In this document: positions 2,735-42,504 of the stretch, piece after piece | Numbering within the stretch: the first letter of the stretch is position 1 | How the letters are laid out: every line of letters begins with the position of its first letter | From: a virus | Lineage: Duplodnaviria; Caudoviricetes | DNA length: 64,000 nucleotides | Strand: one strand, 5' to 3' | Virus record (IMG/VR): IMGVR_UViG_3300034161_000008 | Location: 1 to 64,000 of that record | Program-made: the position numbers and the translations under genes | Notes under the pieces: generated by a model | What the model was told of the DNA's origin: nothing | The model's database searches: none | Seen by the model: only the letters and a program-made list of their open reading frames with translations

Positions 2735-4636
2735 TTAACGAGCCCAGCGACCGAAGCCAGCTTGACGGTTGCCAGCGTAGCCAGCACCAGCTTGTTGACC
2801 GAAGGTGAACAGACCCGATGCAGCGCCGCCGCCCAGAACGCCAGATACGTTGTAGCCAACACGCTCGTAGGTGCCCATATCGGCAACTGGAGTGGTGTTA
2901 CGGATCTGGATGCCGGTGGCACGGATGCCCATCAGCAGTGCGTTGATGAAGGCGTCGGTGAAGGTCACGCGGCGTGCGAAGCCAGTGAACACAACGCTGT
3001 CGCCGAACACGCCGGTCAGGATCTTCTTGCGAGCAGCCAGACGGCTATCCAGCGAGAAGTCGGTACGGTTGAAGCTGTCCGACCACTGACGGATGATCGA
3101 CGGATCTTTCTCGCCGAGCAGGTTCAGTGCAGCCAGGTAGTCGAACTCACGCACGTCGCGCAGGCCGTCTTTGGTATCAACAGTACCCATGTGGATACGG
3201 TTGTACTCGTCGGTGCAGATCGGAGTGCCGACCGGGAAGTGCTTGCTGAAGTTGCCGTTGGTCAGGATCATCGCACCATCGATGATGCTGCTGTTGGCGC
3301 CTTCACTGCCCTCAGCTGCGGCAGCGAATACGTCGTTGTGCCAGGTATCAGCACCGCATTCGGAAACGTCCAGGGACATCACGAGACCAGGCTGGAAGGT
3401 CGCAGCAACCAGTTGACCCAGTTCTGCCAAGCCGAAGCTGTCCAGTTGGGTGTCCTTGATTTTGCTGCCGACGTTGCCAGGCTCGTTGGCCAGGTTGGCT
3501 TCGATGTTGACTGCGCCGATGTCGTGCCAGTTTTGGATGTCGCTGCCACGGCCTTTCTTTTGGAACGCCGGGAAGTGACCGTTGGATTCACGCAGGGTAG
3601 CGGCGACGGCCAGAGCCAGCAGCTGTGCAGGGATGGTCAGCAGATCACCGGTCTCGAGCGAGGTCATTACGAAACGGGCCATGTAGACCTGTTTGTTCTG
3701 AGCCACTTGAGGCTGGTAGATGTTCTGCACTTGTTGCTGTTGCACAGGAGCCCAGATCGGCTCTACGAAACCGGTGGCACGGGAGATGCCGACGGTACGG
3801 TCCATTGGCGAGACGCCTTGGGCACGGTTCTGGCTGGTGTTGCTGGTTGCGTTCAGATCGATGACCACGTCAGCGCGAACCGGGTTGCCAACGGCGTCCT
3901 GGATTTCTTGCTGGTTGAACAGGGTACGAATACCCAGCGTGGTATCTTTCTCGGCGCCGGCCAGGTTGATGTCGGCGAAGTCCGGGCGAGCAGTGTTCAG
4001 CAAAGTGGTAGTTGCTTTCGAGGCGTTGGCGCCCAGGGTGTGCAACAGCGCTTTGTCTTCCACGTTGAAACCGCGACGAACTACGCAGCCGGATGCGTCC
4101 AGCAGCATGGTGTTCGGGAACGCGCGCTGAACTTCAGCGAATACTGCATCGATCACGTCGGCGCTGTAAGCGTCGGAAGCCACACGCAGCTTCTCGATGT
4201 TCACGTTACCAACTTGTTCGTACAGCGGTTGGAACGGTTCGGCCGAGCCTTCCAGCATCAGGATGTGAACCGCGACGCCCAGTTCAGGCAGTTGCTTGTC
4301 TTGTACGCAAACGGCCAGGGCCGACAGCGGGAGCAGACGGTTGTTGTTCAGATCGATCGGCAACAGCTTGACGCCGTAGGATTGATCGCCTTCGCCGTAG
4401 AGTTCTTGCAAGCCTTTGGTCAGCTTGGTCAGGATTTCGCTGGCTGGGTTCTTGCCGAGGATACCGCGGTTCTTACGACCCAGTTCCGAGAAGCTGAACT
4501 GAGGTGCGCCGGTCGCAGTGGTCTGCGCCTGTGGTTGTTCTGGAGCGGCCGCGCGGAAACCTGGATTTGCTTGCTGCTGCTGTGCACTGTTATCCGACTG
4601 TGCGTTGCGGCGAGCTTGGTCGTCTTTGATACCCAT
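2735..4636 (-). CDS. chmA: Chimallin, major phage-nucleus shell protein (phiKZ gp54-like)
   Basis: About 633 aa from the ATG at 4636 (RBS AAGGAAAG). Q/A-rich disordered N-terminus, G-rich C-terminal tail, strong expression-type codon bias, position immediately upstream of nvRNAP beta'. Confidence 0.88.
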   Translation of the reverse strand: MGIKDDQARRNAQSDNSAQQQQANPGFRAAAPEQPQAQTTATGAPQFSFSELGRKNRGILGKNPASEILTKLTKGLQELYGEGDQSYGVKLLPIDLNNNRLLPLSALAVCVQDKQLPELGVAVHILMLEGSAEPFQPLYEQVGNVNIEKLRVASDAYSADVIDAVFAEVQRAFPNTMLLDASGCVVRRGFNVEDKALLHTLGANASKATTTLLNTARPDFADINLAGAEKDTTLGIRTLFNQQEIQDAVGNPVRADVVIDLNATSNTSQNRAQGVSPMDRTVGISRATGFVEPIWAPVQQQQVQNIYQPQVAQNKQVYMARFVMTSLETGDLLTIPAQLLALAVAATLRESNGHFPAFQKKGRGSDIQNWHDIGAVNIEANLANEPGNVGSKIKDTQLDSFGLAELGQLVAATFQPGLVMSLDVSECGADTWHNDVFAAAAEGSEGANSSIIDGAMILTNGNFSKHFPVGTPICTDEYNRIHMGTVDTKDGLRDVREFDYLAALNLLGEKDPSIIRQWSDSFNRTDFSLDSRLAARKKILTGVFGDSVVFTGFARRVTFTDAFINALLMGIRATGIQIRNTTPVADMGTYERVGYNVSGVLGGGAASGLFTFGQQAGAGYAGNRQAGFGRWAR

Positions 4637-4832
4637 GGTATTTCTTTCCTTCTTACTTGCGTGATATTTGGCCAAACAACACGATTCGTTGCGTATTGTC
4701 AGGTTGGTGATATGTGGTTGAAACGGCTTTGAATACAGCAAACTAGATAGTAGAGGCTAGGCCACTCATCCCGGATGTTGCACCGGGATAAGGGAGGGTT
4801 AAGACTAGCGGAACTATTCTCTATACAATGGA

Positions 4833-35006: not shown

Positions 35007-37112
35007 ATGACAAGTCCCCTGAATGCTACCCCACAATCGATTCTGCTCGGTATTGATGACCAGAGTACGGTTGCGTTGGTGGCGGAAGCCGAACAGCTTC
35101 CTACGCACTTGCCGAAACTCTACTTCTACGCCAAGAAAGGTCCTACTGAGCCTCAATTGGTCGTGGGTAACAGCCGTTCCATCATGTACGGGGTCGACTC
35201 CTTTGACCTGCGTAAGCCCTGGGCTAACCACGCCACGGTGCTGGCCAACCTGATCAATGCTCAGGGTAACGCCGGTATGTACGAGCGCGTCAAACCAGCA
35301 GACGCTGGCCCGAACGCCTCGATCCGCGTATCGATCGACGTACTGCCTATGGCCGTACCGTTGTATCAGCGCAACTCCGACGGTTCGATCAAGGTCGATG
35401 CACAGAACAACCCAGTGCCTATGGCCGACGGTTCGACTACCACCGGTTATAAGGTCAAGTTCATCGGCGAGCCGATCGAATACCTGCCGCCTGAAGAAGA
35501 AGGTGGTGAGGCAATCTCCACTTACGGCCTCGGCGAAGAAGGTGCTGGCGACCAGGTCGACGAGCAATCGCAGACCACTTCCGTCCGCTACCCGCTGTTC
35601 GATACCGAGACTCCGGACTTCGGTGCCGACGGCAACCTGCGCGGTATCCGCCTGTGGGCTCCGACTACCAAGTCGAGCAACCCGATCGACCCTACCCTGC
35701 TGACGCAGAACAAGGTCTATCCGCTGCGTATGTCCTGCGTTCTGAAAGACAGCGCTGAGTCGACTCCGACTACCAAACCAACCACCGCTGCTGAGCAGTA
35801 CGTGGACATCGGTTTTGTGCCGGGTGCGATCAACAAGCGTACCGACAAGATCACTTTCGTTGAGGAAGTGTTCGTCCAGTCGTACCAGAATCTGGAAGAC
35901 CCATCGGTTCCGCCTGTCTGGGGCCCGTTCGGCAAATTCCATCTGTACCAGGAAAACGTCGACAAGCTGGTCAAGCTGTTCTACGCAGCTGAAAAGCCGC
36001 ACAGCATCGGCTCGGTCGATTTCGACCAATCCGAAGGCGAAGAGTACCGCTTCAACTTCATCGGTGGCACCGACTCTCAGGGCGTTCCGTACCAGTCTTA
36101 CATCTTCTCGAAAGATGCTGGCTCCGTGCGTCTGACCGAGAACTCGACCATCTATGCTTCGGGCGGTTCCGACGGCACCATGAACGACGTCGAGTTCGCT
36201 AAACTGGTTTCTGCTTCTGTGAAGAAGTACGCAGACCCGGACAGCGAGTTCCAGAATACTGCGAAGTATCCTGAATCGATGATTTGGGACTCCGGCTACC
36301 CGCTGGAAACCAAGTACGACCTGATCAGCTTTATCGCCAACCGTAAGGACACCGGCGTAGGCCTGTGCACTCACACCGTCGGCGGTGCTGAACTGACTGC
36401 TTCGGAAGAGTCGGCTCTGGCTGTTGCTCTGCGCACCCGTCTGGGCATGTTCCCAGAATCCGAAACCTTCGGCACCTCCGTGGTCCGTGGTATCGTGGTG
36501 GGTCGTTCGGGCAAACTGATCAACTCGCAATACACTCAGCCCCTGCCGCTGATCCTCGAGATCGCCAGCAAGACTGCCCAGTACATGGGTGCCGGTAACG
36601 GCAAGTGGAAATCGGGTCAGTCGTTCGACAAGGCTCCTCGCAGCAAAGTCACGATGTTCCGCGACATCAACGTCACCTTCACTCCGTTCACCGTCCGCAA
36701 CAAGGACTGGGCAAACGGCTTGAACTGGGTTGAGTCGTTCGACCGTCGTAGCTTCAGCTTCCCTGCTCTGAAGACCGCTTACGACAACGATACGTCGGTG
36801 TTGACCAGCTTCTTCACCATGATGGGCTGCATCGAAGTCGAGAAAGTTGCTGACCGCTGCTGGCGTGAATTCCGCGGTGTCGACACTCTGTCGAACGCGC
36901 AGATCATCAAGCAGGTCAACCAGTTCTTCAACGACAACCTGGTGGGCCGTTTCGACAACCGCTTCACCATCAACCCTGAAGCCTACTTCACCGCGCAGGA
37001 TATCGCGCGCGGCTACAGCTACTCGGTTCGTGTGAAGGTTTACGCCAACAACATGAAGACTGTCCAGACAATGGTTCTGGAAGCTCATCGCATTGAGGAT
37101 CTCGCAGCATGA
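35007..37112 (+). CDS. Contractile tail sheath protein
   Basis: 701 aa, very strong codon bias, sheath-like C-terminus (DSGYP...; ...YSYSVRVKVYANNMKTV), followed by the tube gene. Confidence 0.88.
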   Translation: MTSPLNATPQSILLGIDDQSTVALVAEAEQLPTHLPKLYFYAKKGPTEPQLVVGNSRSIMYGVDSFDLRKPWANHATVLANLINAQGNAGMYERVKPADAGPNASIRVSIDVLPMAVPLYQRNSDGSIKVDAQNNPVPMADGSTTTGYKVKFIGEPIEYLPPEEEGGEAISTYGLGEEGAGDQVDEQSQTTSVRYPLFDTETPDFGADGNLRGIRLWAPTTKSSNPIDPTLLTQNKVYPLRMSCVLKDSAESTPTTKPTTAAEQYVDIGFVPGAINKRTDKITFVEEVFVQSYQNLEDPSVPPVWGPFGKFHLYQENVDKLVKLFYAAEKPHSIGSVDFDQSEGEEYRFNFIGGTDSQGVPYQSYIFSKDAGSVRLTENSTIYASGGSDGTMNDVEFAKLVSASVKKYADPDSEFQNTAKYPESMIWDSGYPLETKYDLISFIANRKDTGVGLCTHTVGGAELTASEESALAVALRTRLGMFPESETFGTSVVRGIVVGRSGKLINSQYTQPLPLILEIASKTAQYMGAGNGKWKSGQSFDKAPRSKVTMFRDINVTFTPFTVRNKDWANGLNWVESFDRRSFSFPALKTAYDNDTSVLTSFFTMMGCIEVEKVADRCWREFRGVDTLSNAQIIKQVNQFFNDNLVGRFDNRFTINPEAYFTAQDIARGYSYSVRVKVYANNMKTVQTMVLEAHRIEDLAA

Positions 37113-37975
37113 GCCGTATCCGCGACGCAATTCTCGCAGAGAACACGGCCTACCACGTTGGCAAGACCAATCCCATGATTGATCTCCAATACGGCGGGCA
37201 GCAGGGCTACGCGCCCGATCTCACCGAATGGGTAAGCAACCAAGCTTACATTGGCAAAAACCTGATCTGCCTGCTGGTCGAGGCCCCTAAGGGCTTCGGC
37301 TACTTGCCGGACGCCGACGCATGGGTTGGTACTCTCCGTGCGCTGGTCGAGCTGCACCCAATGTCCATCACTGGTCTGTCGGCCGGTCTGGAAGTGGAAG
37401 TAACCGAAAACGCCGCTGGCGGTGCCGGTGAAATGCAGCAAGACTTCACTGACGTGAAACGTGCTCGTTCCAACCCAGTTTTCCGCTGGAACGAGAAATA
37501 CGGCATGCCGGTGCAGACCTTCCTGCAAGGTTGGATCACCTACCTGATGATGGACCCGGCTTCCAAGTACCCGAACGTTGCGACCTTGAGTGGTAGCAAA
37601 CCTACGGACTTGCTGGCCGACCAGTACGCAGCCACGATGATCTTCATCGAGCCAGATCCGACCCACACCAAAGTGGTTAAGGCCTGGCTGTGCACCAACA
37701 TGTGGCCAATGAACACGGGCGAGATGATCGGCCGTCGTGAACTGGCTGCTGCTGGTGAACCGACTACTTACGACATTCCTTTCACTGCGCTGACTCAGTT
37801 CGGCGCTGGTGTGGATCTGCTCGCTGAGAAGTTGCTGGCTGGTATCAACATCACCGGTGCAAACCCTTACCAGCGTCCTGCTTTCTTGGACGCCATCGAC
37901 GCCGACGTTCTGGCAGCCCGCAAGGGTTACGAGAGCCAAGTCGAAGAGCTGGGTTCGCAAGCAATCCGCGTATAG
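37109..37975 (+). CDS. Tail tube protein
   Basis: 288 aa directly after the sheath (ATGA coupling). Contains tube-like IFIEPDPT...KAWLCTNMWP. Confidence 0.85.
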   Translation: MSRIRDAILAENTAYHVGKTNPMIDLQYGGQQGYAPDLTEWVSNQAYIGKNLICLLVEAPKGFGYLPDADAWVGTLRALVELHPMSITGLSAGLEVEVTENAAGGAGEMQQDFTDVKRARSNPVFRWNEKYGMPVQTFLQGWITYLMMDPASKYPNVATLSGSKPTDLLADQYAATMIFIEPDPTHTKVVKAWLCTNMWPMNTGEMIGRRELAAAGEPTTYDIPFTALTQFGAGVDLLAEKLLAGINITGANPYQRPAFLDAIDADVLAARKGYESQVEELGSQAIRV

Positions 37976-38017
37976 CGGCATAAGGAGAGCAGCCTTTCGG
38001 GGCTGCTCTCTATGCTG
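37976..38017. terminator. Bidirectional hairpin with TATGC(C/T)G boxes
   Basis: CGGCATAA-GGAGAGCAGCC-TTTCGG-GGCTGCTCT-CTATGCTG between convergent stops. Confidence 0.72.
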
Positions 38018-38021
38018 TAAA

Positions 38022-38432
38022 TTAACGAATGTCGGGGTTGTTGGCACGATCCAGATCAACCATGCGTTGGGTGCGCGCTTGCAGTGCAGCCATCGAATGT
38101 TGTAGATGGTACAGAGCTTCTGCGTTCTCGGCCGAAGCGAACGGACCGGCTTGGAAGTCAGTCAGGCGATCTATACAGACAGCCATCAGAGATTCCATGG
38201 TAATGCCGACCAGATCTTTATCTGGCATTGGGCGTTCATTCTGGAAGATCAACGACAGCTTGGAGAACGACGCACGATAGCCGTCGTCGTCAGCGTTGGC
38301 GGTGTTGAGAGCAGTGTCAAAGCCAGTGATCTGGTAGTGAGTGTGACCACCACCTGCACCTACGACACCCACAGCTTTCACAACAACGTTGGTTTCAGCG
38401 CCTTCAACGTGGTGTACGGTAACTTCTTTCAT
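38022..38432 (-). CDS. tad1: Tad1-family immune-signal sponge protein (anti-Thoeris/anti-CBASS candidate)
   Basis: Start MKEVTV at 38432 (RBS AAGGAAG). GxGGxHxHY loop, IFQ, then IDRLTDFQAGPFASAENAEALYHL, matching the Tad1 hallmark DRLxxFQxGPFxxxENxxAL. Confidence 0.82.
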   Translation of the reverse strand: MKEVTVHHVEGAETNVVVKAVGVVGAGGGHTHYQITGFDTALNTANADDDGYRASFSKLSLIFQNERPMPDKDLVGITMESLMAVCIDRLTDFQAGPFASAENAEALYHLQHSMAALQARTQRMVDLDRANNPDIR

Positions 38433-38560
38433 GAGACTTCCTTTCGTGATTAATCGGAGTACACAAAATCCACCAAACAAATAAAAAAAAAAGAGTGTCG
38501 GGTAGTCCCGGCTTTTATGCCGTCATAGACGGAAGACCGAAGTCTCCCGCCTACTCAGGT

Positions 38561-39289
38561 TTAGCTTTCGTGCGGTGACAGACCGTTAGGACTGTTGTAG
38601 AAGCTGGCGCGACTGGGCAAGAACCGGTAGAACATGTTCTTCTTCTCAACTTGAACCAAACGATTCATGATTGAGGAGTGTATCGGCATCAAGCTTTCGG
38701 CAGCCTGCTGCGAACTGGAGTACAGAAACAATGCCCAGTGGAAAGCATCAACAACGGCTGTGGTCAAACACATCCGAGGCGAACTACCCAAGCCATCTTC
38801 GTAGTCGGTAATTGCCGAAGACATATCGCCAACAGCCGAGATGAAGTGAATCAAGCCATCGAACTGGCTAGGCATCTTTCCAACAGCCATATTGCACTTG
38901 TGGCGGTACATGTACGAAGCCATGTTGCCAACGTTGACATTGTCGGAATGTTCTTTCAGTGTCTCAGCTACGTAACCACCCAGGTTGATTTGCAGGGTGT
39001 TGGCCATTGACATCGCAATGATTACAGCATCAACAACCTTGCGACGAAACTCACGCAGGTTGTCAGCCTGATGCAGCTCCATCAGATTACCGCCGTACTT
39101 GCCCATGTGCAACACGAAGTGCGTCAGCTTCTGAGCCAGTGGCAAGGTGTGGATCTCGTGGTGGAAGTAACGGTCGTGTTGTTCTTGCAACCACTGGACT
39201 TCAAGAACTTTATCAGCGAAGAACTGATTCATTCGTGGAGCCGGAGGAGCAACTTGAATACCACAACCATCAGATGAATCGAGGATCAT
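38561..39289 (-). CDS. All-alpha protein, possibly MazG-like NTP pyrophosphatase fold
   Basis: 242 aa, two similar helical halves (HMGKYGG...VVDAVII and HFISAVGD...VVDAFHW). Family assignment is inference. Confidence 0.45.
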   Translation of the reverse strand: MILDSSDGCGIQVAPPAPRMNQFFADKVLEVQWLQEQHDRYFHHEIHTLPLAQKLTHFVLHMGKYGGNLMELHQADNLREFRRKVVDAVIIAMSMANTLQINLGGYVAETLKEHSDNVNVGNMASYMYRHKCNMAVGKMPSQFDGLIHFISAVGDMSSAITDYEDGLGSSPRMCLTTAVVDAFHWALFLYSSSQQAAESLMPIHSSIMNRLVQVEKKNMFYRFLPSRASFYNSPNGLSPHES

Positions 39290-39555
39290 TCTTCTAACTC
39301 CATCTTTACTTTCTTAACGATTTGGGATACCCGGCCAGGAGACAGCTTAAAGACACTAGCGACGTCTTTAGCTTTAGATCCACCCAGTACGGCGAAGTAG
39401 ATAAACTTGTCGCGAAGTTTTACAACCTCCTCCTGCAATTCTTTAAGCTGCCCAACTTCCGTGTCGGTAAACAATCGTCCTTCATCAAGGCTAGCTTTAG
39501 CTTTATCCAAAGCTCTGCTTGCGTGTTCCAGATGACTCAATGCCAATCTTCCCAT
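39286..39555 (-). CDS. Helix-turn-helix DNA-binding protein
   Basis: C-terminal KAKDVASVFKLSPGRVSQIVKK is a classic HTH of the sigma-4/LuxR-like pattern. Confidence 0.75.
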   Translation of the reverse strand: MGRLALSHLEHASRALDKAKASLDEGRLFTDTEVGQLKELQEEVVKLRDKFIYFAVLGGSKAKDVASVFKLSPGRVSQIVKKVKMELEE

Positions 39556-39572
39556 ACGAAGTCTCCAGAGAT

Positions 39573-39615
39573 AAAAAAAATAGTAACCTAAGATGGGGAG
39601 TTCTTAGGTTACTAC
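39573..39615 (-). terminator. Intrinsic terminator
   Basis: Minus strand TAGTAACCTAAGA-loop-TCTTAGGTTACTA followed by a T tract. Confidence 0.85.
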
Positions 39616-39660
39616 GCTAACAGGCATACGCTGAAAGAAGGAGTGAACAGCGCAGCAGGA

Positions 39661-40023
39661 CTAGCCAAGTGCCCCCAAGTTGAGGTTAACGAAACCGGCG
39701 ACCACACCCGCGACTTCTGATTGAGTCGGTGGGCGGAATCGATCGAATCCTTGAAACTGTTTGTAGCGTAATGCAAAGACTTCACTAAGAGGAAAGCCTC
39801 CGTAGAAATAAGGTTCAGGCTCGTGTGCTTTCCGATGCTTGTAGAAAGGAGAGTACGTTGAGAAACGGTTCCAGCAAGTTGATGCGTCCAAACGGTCTGC
39901 CCATCCTGAGAGCCATTCGTCTATTGCTTTAAGGGGGTCCTGTGTCTCTTGTGGAGAGAAGTGAAGCGGGAATTCCATCCGCGCTATTGGTTTCTCCAGC
40001 AGTTCCTTTATTGTGGCCATCAT
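39661..40023 (-). CDS. Hypothetical protein
   Basis: Likely start MMATIK at about 40023. Confidence 0.55.
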   Translation of the reverse strand: MMATIKELLEKPIARMEFPLHFSPQETQDPLKAIDEWLSGWADRLDASTCWNRFSTYSPFYKHRKAHEPEPYFYGGFPLSEVFALRYKQFQGFDRFRPPTQSEVAGVVAGFVNLNLGALG

Positions 40024-40423
40024 CCGATACCCTAGGAAAGTGTTGGGTGTTCGCTTTTGTGATCTCTCCACAAAGCGTAACTTCAATACCGTGTGCTTCC
40101 AGATATTTCTTCACCACCATTATCAGCAGGTGACGGTGACAGAATTGTCCGGCTCGACAGTAACAGGCGAGTGCAACAGTATCATACCCTTTAAGTTCCT
40201 CCCAACGCCCAGGATTCAATTCCTGAGATTCAGCCATCTTGGCTAGGTAGAGTCTGGTGTATTCCTCCTCAGACATCTTGCCATTTTTGTAATCCCACAC
40301 CTTGCTCATGTCCGGAGCGAAGGCGGCGATCCCACTCTTAGCGGTCGTATCGAGCATCTCAATGCCTAACGACTTACAGAGCCTCCATTGCGCGATCTGA
40401 ACGGTGTAGATCCTAATTGCCAC
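39929..40423 (-). CDS. DUF488-family protein
   Basis: GTG start at 40423 (RBS GGAG). IYTVQ start, LAP-like FAPD, EEEYTRLY and VALACYC-x4-FCHRHLL. Confidence 0.75.
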   Translation of the reverse strand: MAIRIYTVQIAQWRLCKSLGIEMLDTTAKSGIAAFAPDMSKVWDYKNGKMSEEEYTRLYLAKMAESQELNPGRWEELKGYDTVALACYCRAGQFCHRHLLIMVVKKYLEAHGIEVTLCGEITKANTQHFPRVSDDGHNKGTAGETNSADGIPASLLSTRDTGPP

Positions 40424-41748: not shown

Positions 41749-42504
41749 TTACCAGCGCAGGAACGCTGGACGTTCAACAGGCTTGTTGGACCAGCCCATC
41801 GAAGCGAACAACTCAGCACCACTGAGGATAACGGACTCTTGAGCGATGCCCGCAACCACACTTTGGCTCTGAGCGCGTTCGATATCGCCGCGAGTAAAGG
41901 TCTGATCGAACTGACCCTCCAGTGCAGGAGACATCCACTTCTCAGCCACCGACAACCCAGGCTCGTTCACGTAGTCCCACGTGACGACAGTCTTGAGGTG
42001 ACGATGTACAATCCCGCCCAGCCGGTGATCGTCTGTGAAGGCCCGGATAGAGAAACAGACGTTCTCGTTAGGGTTCTTCAACGAACGCTCCAGAGCAGCA
42101 CCGTGAGGGCCCGCAGGGAGGATATCGCCGATGATGGCGATGATCGGATTCCCTTTGGCGTCCTTGATGCTGTTGAAGTCCAGCTCCAGGTTCATGATGT
42201 GGTGGGAGACTTTGTCTTCCCAGATCGACATCACGCGGTTAGCGAACTCGTTGCTGGATTGACCCGGCAGCGGTTTCGGGTGGCCGTATTCCCCACGCAG
42301 TGCGCCCTTTGCACAACGACGCATCAGCTGGCTCGAATTCTCGAACAAAGCTTTTGCAGGCTCGTAAGCATAGAACTCACCAGCAGAGTTGAACATGTTC
42401 AGGGCACCGAGCACGACACGGTAGTAGCCTTGCTCGTTTTGCTTGAGGTTACCGACTTTGTTTATACCGGCCAAAGCCGTACAAACGAACTTAATGGAAT
42501 TCAT
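41749..42504 (-). CDS. Prohead (head maturation) protease, phiKZ gp175-like
   Basis: GEYGHP histidine motif and FSIR serine motif, 251 aa, canonical position upstream of the virion RNAP. Confidence 0.85.
   Translation of the reverse strand: MNSIKFVCTALAGINKVGNLKQNEQGYYRVVLGALNMFNSAGEFYAYEPAKALFENSSQLMRRCAKGALRGEYGHPKPLPGQSSNEFANRVMSIWEDKVSHHIMNLELDFNSIKDAKGNPIIAIIGDILPAGPHGAALERSLKNPNENVCFSIRAFTDDHRLGGIVHRHLKTVVTWDYVNEPGLSVAEKWMSPALEGQFDQTFTRGDIERAQSQSVVAGIAQESVILSGAELFASMGWSNKPVERPAFLRW

Follow-up and report, generated by a model that had tools for sequence, protein, structure and literature searches.

A divergent, stand-alone Tad1-family homologue encoded by a probable nucleus-forming phage

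A gene on the minus strand of a phage genome encodes a 136-residue protein, P0001, which by sequence and by predicted fold is a homologue of the Tad1 (Thoeris anti-defence 1) family. The gene lies within a stretch of 64,000 nucleotides (hereafter the window), which belongs to a virus record of 218,436 bp that is complete and has terminal repeats. Our preferred reading, to which we assign a probability of about 0.62, is that the gene encodes a stand-alone, cytoplasmically made Tad1-family sponge that would trap adenine-containing immune messengers between its protomers.

Family membership and predicted fold of P0001

The translation contains all of the strings quoted in the original prediction, i.e. 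GAGGGHTHY, LIFQ, IDRLTDFQAGPFASAENAEALYHLQHS and the C-terminal tail RMVDLDRANNPDIR, and the motif that it gave for Tad1, DRLxxFQxGPFxxRENxxAL, is shown by CbTad1 in the printed alignment. When P0001 was compared with all PDB chains using phmmer, the only significant matches were to Tad1 proteins (CbTad1, E 2.4e-8; phiKZ gp184, 5.9e-7; CmTad1, 1.4e-3). An exhaustive search of 1.84 billion representatives returned 1368 relatives at E<=0.001, and a profile of 131 family members searched against the PDB matched the same three proteins (gp184, 8.8e-29; CbTad1, 2.7e-26; CmTad1, 4.1e-21) and no other solved protein at E<=0.01. P0001 is also matched by three PHROGs of unknown function and carries a precomputed Pfam assignment to PF24729 Acb2_Tad1_hairpin (version PF24729.3). 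A local Pfam-A scan of P0001 gave no family even at E 10, and a search of the genome with PF24729.2 found nothing; we treat this null result as an effect of the model version (PF24729.2 versus PF24729.3), and not as evidence against Tad1 membership. PADLOC reported nothing for P0001 or its neighbours.

The AF2 model of P0001 (mean pLDDT 96, pTM 0.85) consists of a beta-sheet followed by two long helices:

N-terminal antiparallel beta-sheet (AF2), strands at residues 2-4, 17-20, 32-36 and 58-63
Helix alpha1 (AF2), residues 79-95
Helix alpha2 (AF2), residues 101-131

The original prediction had proposed comparison with solved Tad1 structures as a check, and in a Foldseek search of the PDB with this model ranks 1-20 were all Tad1 (best E 3.3e-8, TM 0.71/0.81), with nothing significant beyond Tad1 (rank 21 at E 0.26). 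P0001 agrees with the experimentally characterised Tad1 proteins in sequence homology, in fold (beta-sheet then two helices) and in being phage-encoded, and the proposed family membership was upheld by the pairwise, profile and fold searches alike.

Membership of the Acb2 (anti-CBASS 2) family was considered and rejected, since searches of the PDB by sequence, profile or fold returned no Acb2 chain and since P0001 has a beta-sheet. Acb2 shares with P0001 the helical hairpin recognised by PF24729 Acb2_Tad1_hairpin, but its protomer is an all-helical hairpin that lacks the beta-sheet of Tad1, whereas P0001 has an N-terminal beta-sheet. The Acb2 hexamer binds two cyclic trinucleotides in a mode that its authors likened to that of Tad1 (bioRxiv 10.1101/2023.11.15.567273).

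Self-association of P0001 is predicted by a four-copy complex model, which reached 0.87, against 0.01 for the best control, with contact agreement of at least 92% and partner pLDDT of at least 84; the 0.87 mark is reached by 20 of 30 solved homo-pairs and by 1 of 23 single chains, although the job used four copies, unlike the calibration. Solved Tad1 oligomers exist, and the four-copy pass may mirror no more than likeness to them, or their memorisation by the model, and is silent on the hexamer. A hexamer is not assured for P0001, because the interface residues are not conserved: R90, T97, E101, M104, W105 and R108 of the CbTad1/CmTad1 hexamer interface correspond to Ala, Tyr, His, Ala, Ala and Ala, respectively.

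Stand-alone proteins account for 83 of 146 near representatives (within the best 150 of the 1368); another 47, about a third, are extended at the N-terminus by 40 to 460 residues, as is phiKZ gp184, and 16 are extended at the C-terminus. A further database protein from outside the window, P0008 (1527 residues), gives 16 separate matches to residues 52-88 of P0001 (E 5.6e-29) and is a long protein made of repeats of one Tad1 fragment, which runs from strand beta4 to the start of helix alpha1.

The phage and the tad1 locus

The window carries a homologue of the nuclear-shell protein chimallin at 2735-4741 (phrog_4795, E 8.9e-83; phiKZ gp54, E 1.8e-14). Because chimallin is encoded, the phage is very probably nucleus-forming. 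This agrees with the original prediction, and the genome also has phiKZ-type split RNA polymerase beta subunits, a phiKZ-type protease, virion proteins and phiKZ-type tail genes, in a gene set that includes tail sheath, tail tube, terminase and virion RNA polymerase. The nuclear shell of such phages keeps out DNA-targeting nucleases, but not signalling or abortive-infection systems. The tail sheath is ∼50% identical to those of the Ralstonia phages RP12/RP31 and of Burkholderia phage FLC9, and a megablast search with 3.5 kb against deposited phages gave no match. The complete genome has one Tad1 locus only, with the following features:

37976-38015, no strand assigned: palindromic CATA-hairpin-TATG element between the convergent tail-tube gene (which ends at 37975) and tad1 (which ends at 38022)
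38022-38432, minus strand: tad1-like gene encoding P0001 (open reading frame and translation, 136 amino acids plus stop)
38437-38444, minus strand: Shine-Dalgarno-like AAAGGAAG, which precedes the ATG at 38432 by 4 nt (read from the sequence; putative function)
38457-38496, minus strand: 5' leader (ACTC, T10, ATTTGTTTGG..ATTTTGTGTACTC) directly upstream of tad1
38524-38549, minus strand: hairpin (GGGAGAC-TTCG-GTCTTCC) then TATG, upstream of the tad1 leader (read from the sequence)
38561-39289, minus strand: gene for a 242-aa protein, upstream of tad1; phrog_19333 match, function unknown
39286-39555, minus strand: gene for an 89-aa protein with a sub-threshold sigma-70 region 4-like helix-turn-helix
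39929-40444, minus strand: gene for a 171-aa protein; PF22751 DUF488-N3a ('active DUF488-N3 subclade', E 3.7e-8), phrog_2450

The ATG at 38432 was chosen as the start of tad1 because AAAGGAAG lies 4 nt upstream of it and because homologues begin with MKEVT/MKIVT; the same Met opens four homologues with 65-83% identity to P0001, and a similar GAAGGGAAG stands in the place of AAAGGAAG in a 150-kb contig of a related phage (L008). A longer TTG start at 38480 was rejected, as the homologue N-termini give it no support.

A block of small minus-strand genes that starts at the head protease (41749-42504) ends with tad1, which is convergent with the genes for the tail sheath (35007-37112) and the tail tube (37109-37975; PF23806, E 1.5e-111). 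An orthologue with 68% identity occupies the same position in L008, where the order is virion RNA polymerase, protease, small genes including DUF488-N3a, tad1, and convergent tail tube and sheath; tad1 has kept its place in this diverged relative as neighbouring genes changed.

The 40-nt leader of tad1 may be a promoter or leader element: a near-identical string precedes the orthologue in L008, and the string occurs once in the 218-kb genome. The order upstream of tad1 is the hairpin-TATG unit, then the T10 tract, then the 40-nt leader, and L008 has a hairpin followed by TTATG at the place corresponding to 38524-38549. TATG is the late-promoter motif of phiKZ, although it is frequent and insufficient alone (PMC4666361). 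By this analogy the hairpin-TATG unit gives only a hint about expression timing, and as a resemblance to phiKZ late promoters it counts against a sponge, for which late timing would be odd if the protein is not packaged. The palindrome at 37976-38015 presents a hairpin and then TATG on both strands; a consensus scan made no intrinsic-terminator call there (the element lacks a T-run), and it may mark a transcript boundary. No sigma-70 promoter was found in a scan, which carries no weight, because the phage uses its own polymerases and such an absence is expected. Sequencing runs labelled RNA that cover the stretch are probably DNA and provide contigs only, and one of them has no cover over most of tad1.

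Several further observations concern the surroundings of the gene. In the tad1-proximal part of the accessory block (38200-40200) the G+C content is 0.47-0.50, lower than the 0.56-0.60 of the structural genes on either side. Close relatives represented by two long DNA contigs, of 140 kb and 215 kb, have 87 different bases in place of the 98 at 38528-38627, which span the end of the 242-aa gene together with the hairpin-TATG unit; both flanks align, and this small replaced segment sits at the 5' boundary of tad1. The 242-aa gene has no Pfam match and no PDB sequence match; by language-model features its product lies near unnamed clusters (0.92), with a weaker nearness (0.86-0.88, a lead only) to all-alpha NTP pyrophosphohydrolases of the MazG / PRA-PH / dUTPase_2 type. 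Functional coupling of this gene with tad1 was considered and rejected, since the gene is absent at the syntenic locus of L008 and the junction is replaced in environmental relatives. The DUF488-N3a gene is also found in the corresponding island of L008. The helix-turn-helix of the 89-aa protein is matched by PF04545 at E 3.8e-4, with 20.4 bits against a cut-off of 24.1.

Ligand-binding sites and selection

We mapped the residues of P0001 onto CbTad1 by an alignment without gaps between the FQ motif of strand beta4 and the end of helix alpha2, in which the CbTad1 numbering reproduces the residues named in the papers. Frequencies below refer to the near family, i.e. 155 aligned domains from the best 150 of the 1368 representatives, and phylogeny to a tree of 131 domains.

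Eleven residues of CbTad1 contact gcADPR (Leavitt et al., bioRxiv 10.1101/2022.05.03.490397), of which five are identical in P0001 and six differ. Those kept are on the adenine side of the pocket (F93, F98, N103, R120 and R89 of P0001, for F82, F87, N92, R109 and R78 of CbTad1); in CbTad1, F82 and R109 stack the adenine, N92 reads its Hoogsteen edge and F87 lies on the ribose (bioRxiv 10.1101/2022.05.03.490397). Retention in the near family is high for N92 (151/155), R109 (153/155) and F82 (137/155), and Y33, R89, F93, N103 and R120, which stack and read the adenine, are near-invariant there and invariant in the clade formed by P0001-P0004. P0001 therefore most likely still clamps an adenine nucleotide, as judged from these residues.

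The opposite side of the pocket is not kept. The contacts to the diphosphate and ribose linkage, R57, R113, H29 and G55, and those of the lid (G120 and N122), are all missing from P0001. R113 corresponds to Met124, with Arg123 one position earlier (R123-M124 at the place of D112-R113), and R57 corresponds to Pro68, with Arg67 adjacent (E66-R67-P68 at the place of G55-A56-R57), so that, apart from R109, both arginines that contact the diphosphate are shifted by one residue; H29 corresponds to Thr31, which is flanked by two His. The lid itself (CbTad1 116-122) has no counterpart, as helix alpha2 of the AF2 model runs to residue 131, and P0001 has no RGVEG-type lid, so that its C-terminus does not match the family consensus ...RTxxRxxRGVEG. 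Two claims of the original prediction, that P0001 diverges at ligand-contacting positions and that its tail differs from that of Tad1, were thus borne out. R113 is missing from 34 of the 155 near-family domains, none of which has the lid motif, and the lid-less state has at least five origins in the tree. Because the phosphate and ribose contacts and the lid are rebuilt, the exact ligand preferences of P0001 probably differ from those of CbTad1. For comparison, substitutions in the canonical gcADPR/dinucleotide pocket have been reported for 12% of homologues.

We also compared tad1 with its relatives to gauge the selection acting on it. Between P0001 and its L008 orthologue dN/dS is ∼0.14 for residues 1-124 (a rough value, as dS is near saturation) and ∼0.69 for the last 12 residues of P0001. 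Contigs of relatives that cover tad1 come from wastewater, biofilm and peat assemblies, and their listed differences are almost all at third codon positions, except in the PMPDKD loop and the C-terminal tail, where there are indels; the tail varies in this way between phages that are ∼93% identical. The body of the gene is therefore under strong purifying selection and is selectively maintained.

These features raise the question of whether the pocket has been re-tooled, i.e. whether P0001-P0004 keep the adenine clamp and have rebuilt the rest of the pocket for a different adenine-containing immune signal, which in place of gcADPR or cGAMP could be His-ADPR (type II Thoeris), N7-cADPR (type IV Thoeris) or an unknown signal. 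P0001-P0004 form a well-supported clade (100/94) in which H29 is Thr/Ser, R113 is Met/Phe with the Arg/Lys shifted to the neighbouring residue, and the lid motif is missing, and among the 155 domains from the best 150 representatives G55 is replaced by Glu only in this clade; the remodelled C-terminus together with the shifts at R113, H29 and G55 plausibly leaves room for a changed specificity of the main pocket. The contrast in dN/dS between body and tail points in the same direction, as does the switching of ligands in sister families, in which Acb2 homologues bind 3'cADPR and Tad2 homologues bind cUMP or N7-cADPR (PMC12393519). However, the 20 Tad1 proteins tested in the same study inhibited CBASS and type I Thoeris, and no new Tad1 specificity was reported (PMC12393519); a one-position shift of an arginine and the loss of the lid may only tune affinity, and at least five lid-less origins look more like a tolerated loss than a specific innovation. 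We regard a re-tooled pocket as unlikely, though as the most probable of the alternatives to the preferred reading. A stricter form, in which the four-member clade is a Tad1 lineage retargeted to an adenine-containing immune signal that no Tad1 is known to bind, we consider rather doubtful; candidates for that signal would be His-ADPR, N7-cADPR or a Thoeris-like messenger, as yet undescribed, from hosts of the Burkholderiales type. A new ligand for P0001 is thus a plausible but minority reading of the residue changes.

The original prediction rested its altered ligand spectrum on the Ala that precedes EN in place of the usual Arg. The change is real, as Ala101 of P0001 corresponds to R90 of CbTad1, but Arg is usual only in CbTad1-like proteins: of the 155 near-family domains (best 150 of 1368 representatives), 14 have Arg at this position, against 30 with Ala, the commonest residue, 28 with Glu and 19 with Asp. 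Moreover, R90 lies outside the gcADPR pocket. At the three-fold interface of the hexamer, R90 and T97 (Tyr108 in P0001) together bind the three cA3/cAAG phosphates (Li et al., bioRxiv 10.1101/2023.11.15.567273), and both residues also contribute to hexamer formation (bioRxiv 10.1101/2023.11.15.567273). In CbTad1, R90A or T97A markedly reduces cA3 binding and leaves gcADPR binding intact (bioRxiv 10.1101/2023.11.15.567273). The Arg-to-Ala change therefore argues for the loss of one known ligand class, not for the gain of a new one, and we infer that P0001, from which both canonical residues are absent (A101, Y108), has lost the canonical cyclic-trinucleotide site.

This bears on the possibility that P0001 is a fully canonical Tad1, which would bind gcADPR and cyclic di- and trinucleotides as CbTad1 does, with other residues of the three-fold pocket compensating. 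The predicted fold and self-association are conserved, and the family is described as keeping both sites, with the trinucleotide site substituted in 6% of homologues in the authors' own set, a figure not directly comparable with ours because the 155-domain set is biased to relatives of P0001. Against it, both phosphate binders are replaced in P0001, when a single substitution of either is enough to impair cA3 binding in CbTad1; the hydrophobic hexamer contacts M104/W105 are Ala/Ala; and Arg together with Thr/Ser at the two positions occurs in only 10 of the 155 near domains from the best 150 of 1368 representatives. We judge a fully canonical Tad1 to be improbable. Re-use of the Tad1 fold beyond signal sequestration (for instance in scaffolding or protein binding), or decay of the gene, could account for the six differing gcADPR contacts and the missing lid, but is very improbable given the strong purifying selection on the body, the retention of the gene at its locus while neighbours change, and the adenine-reading residues that are invariant in the clade.

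Proposed function and relation to known Tad1 proteins

On the preferred reading of P0001 as a sponge, the protein would form head-to-tail dimers like those of the solved Tad1 proteins, and perhaps larger assemblies. Its pocket, lying between protomers, would capture gcADPR isomers of Thoeris and/or cyclic dinucleotides of CBASS, and with the messenger trapped the host effector would stay off. The phosphate and ribose contacts and the closing lid would have been rebuilt in this protein, with a helical, fast-evolving tail taking the place of the RGVEG lid, and the pocket may in consequence bind poorly or bind something else. P0001 is presumably expressed during infection and not injected, because it has no N-terminal capsid-anchoring extension, unlike phiKZ gp184.

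A close solved relative is CbTad1, from a Clostridium botulinum prophage (PDB 7UAV, 7UAW, 8SMD, 8KBE-8KBH), which has the same fold, a similar size and ∼27% identity. P0001 shares its DRLxxFQAGPFxxxEN core and its adenine clamp (F82/N92/R109, with F87 and R78 as well), but differs in having Ala/Tyr for R90/T97, Met for R113, Thr for H29, Glu for G55 and Pro for R57, and a predicted helical tail where CbTad1 has its lid at 116-122.

Contrary to what the original prediction had implied, a Tad1 in a nucleus-forming phage is not in itself new, since gp184 of the nucleus-forming Pseudomonas phage phiKZ (PDB 8Y6V chain I) is a published Tad1. The protein sits with its N-terminus wedged into the capsid and is reported to undergo processing, after which the freed C-terminal part is injected (bioRxiv 10.1101/2025.11.23.690004). 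It is the best PDB match of the family profile and is 25% identical to P0001 over 111 residues (E 6e-12 pairwise); like P0001, it lacks Arg at the R90 position, where it has Glu. The two differ in that gp184 has 230-239 residues, whereas P0001 is a bare domain of 136 residues in which the Tad1 domain starts at residue 1, and in that gp184 retains the second Arg, at +4, as well as a lid-like QGTEG motif, neither of which is present in P0001.

The closest match among deposited phages is the unannotated gp131 of Burkholderia phage FLC9 (338 residues; 41% identity over 124 residues, E 2e-24), a phage that is also among the closest by tail sheath. In gp131 the Tad1 domain forms the C-terminal third, and the gene lies at ∼135 kb, as opposed to beside the tail tube for P0001. 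Both gp184 and FLC9 gp131 have 110-200 extra N-terminal residues, and P0001 has no such extension.

Ligand range is documented to vary within the Tad1, Tad2 and Acb2 families (PMC12393519), and a 2026 review describes the Tad1 of phiKZ as the only anti-defence protein so far described in jumbo phages (PMC13282480). P0001 is an incremental addition to this picture and does not overturn current understanding. Nucleus-forming phages are shielded from DNA-targeting nucleases but still exposed to Thoeris and CBASS signalling, and the present locus indicates that Tad1 also occurs in a distant chimallivirus lineage related to the Ralstonia/Burkholderia jumbo phages, as a bare domain and not in the capsid-packaged form. 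In the near family of P0001 the trinucleotide residues are mostly absent and the lid and second arginine have been lost repeatedly, and these proteins therefore provide natural variants with which the determinants of ligand range in Tad1 could be tested.
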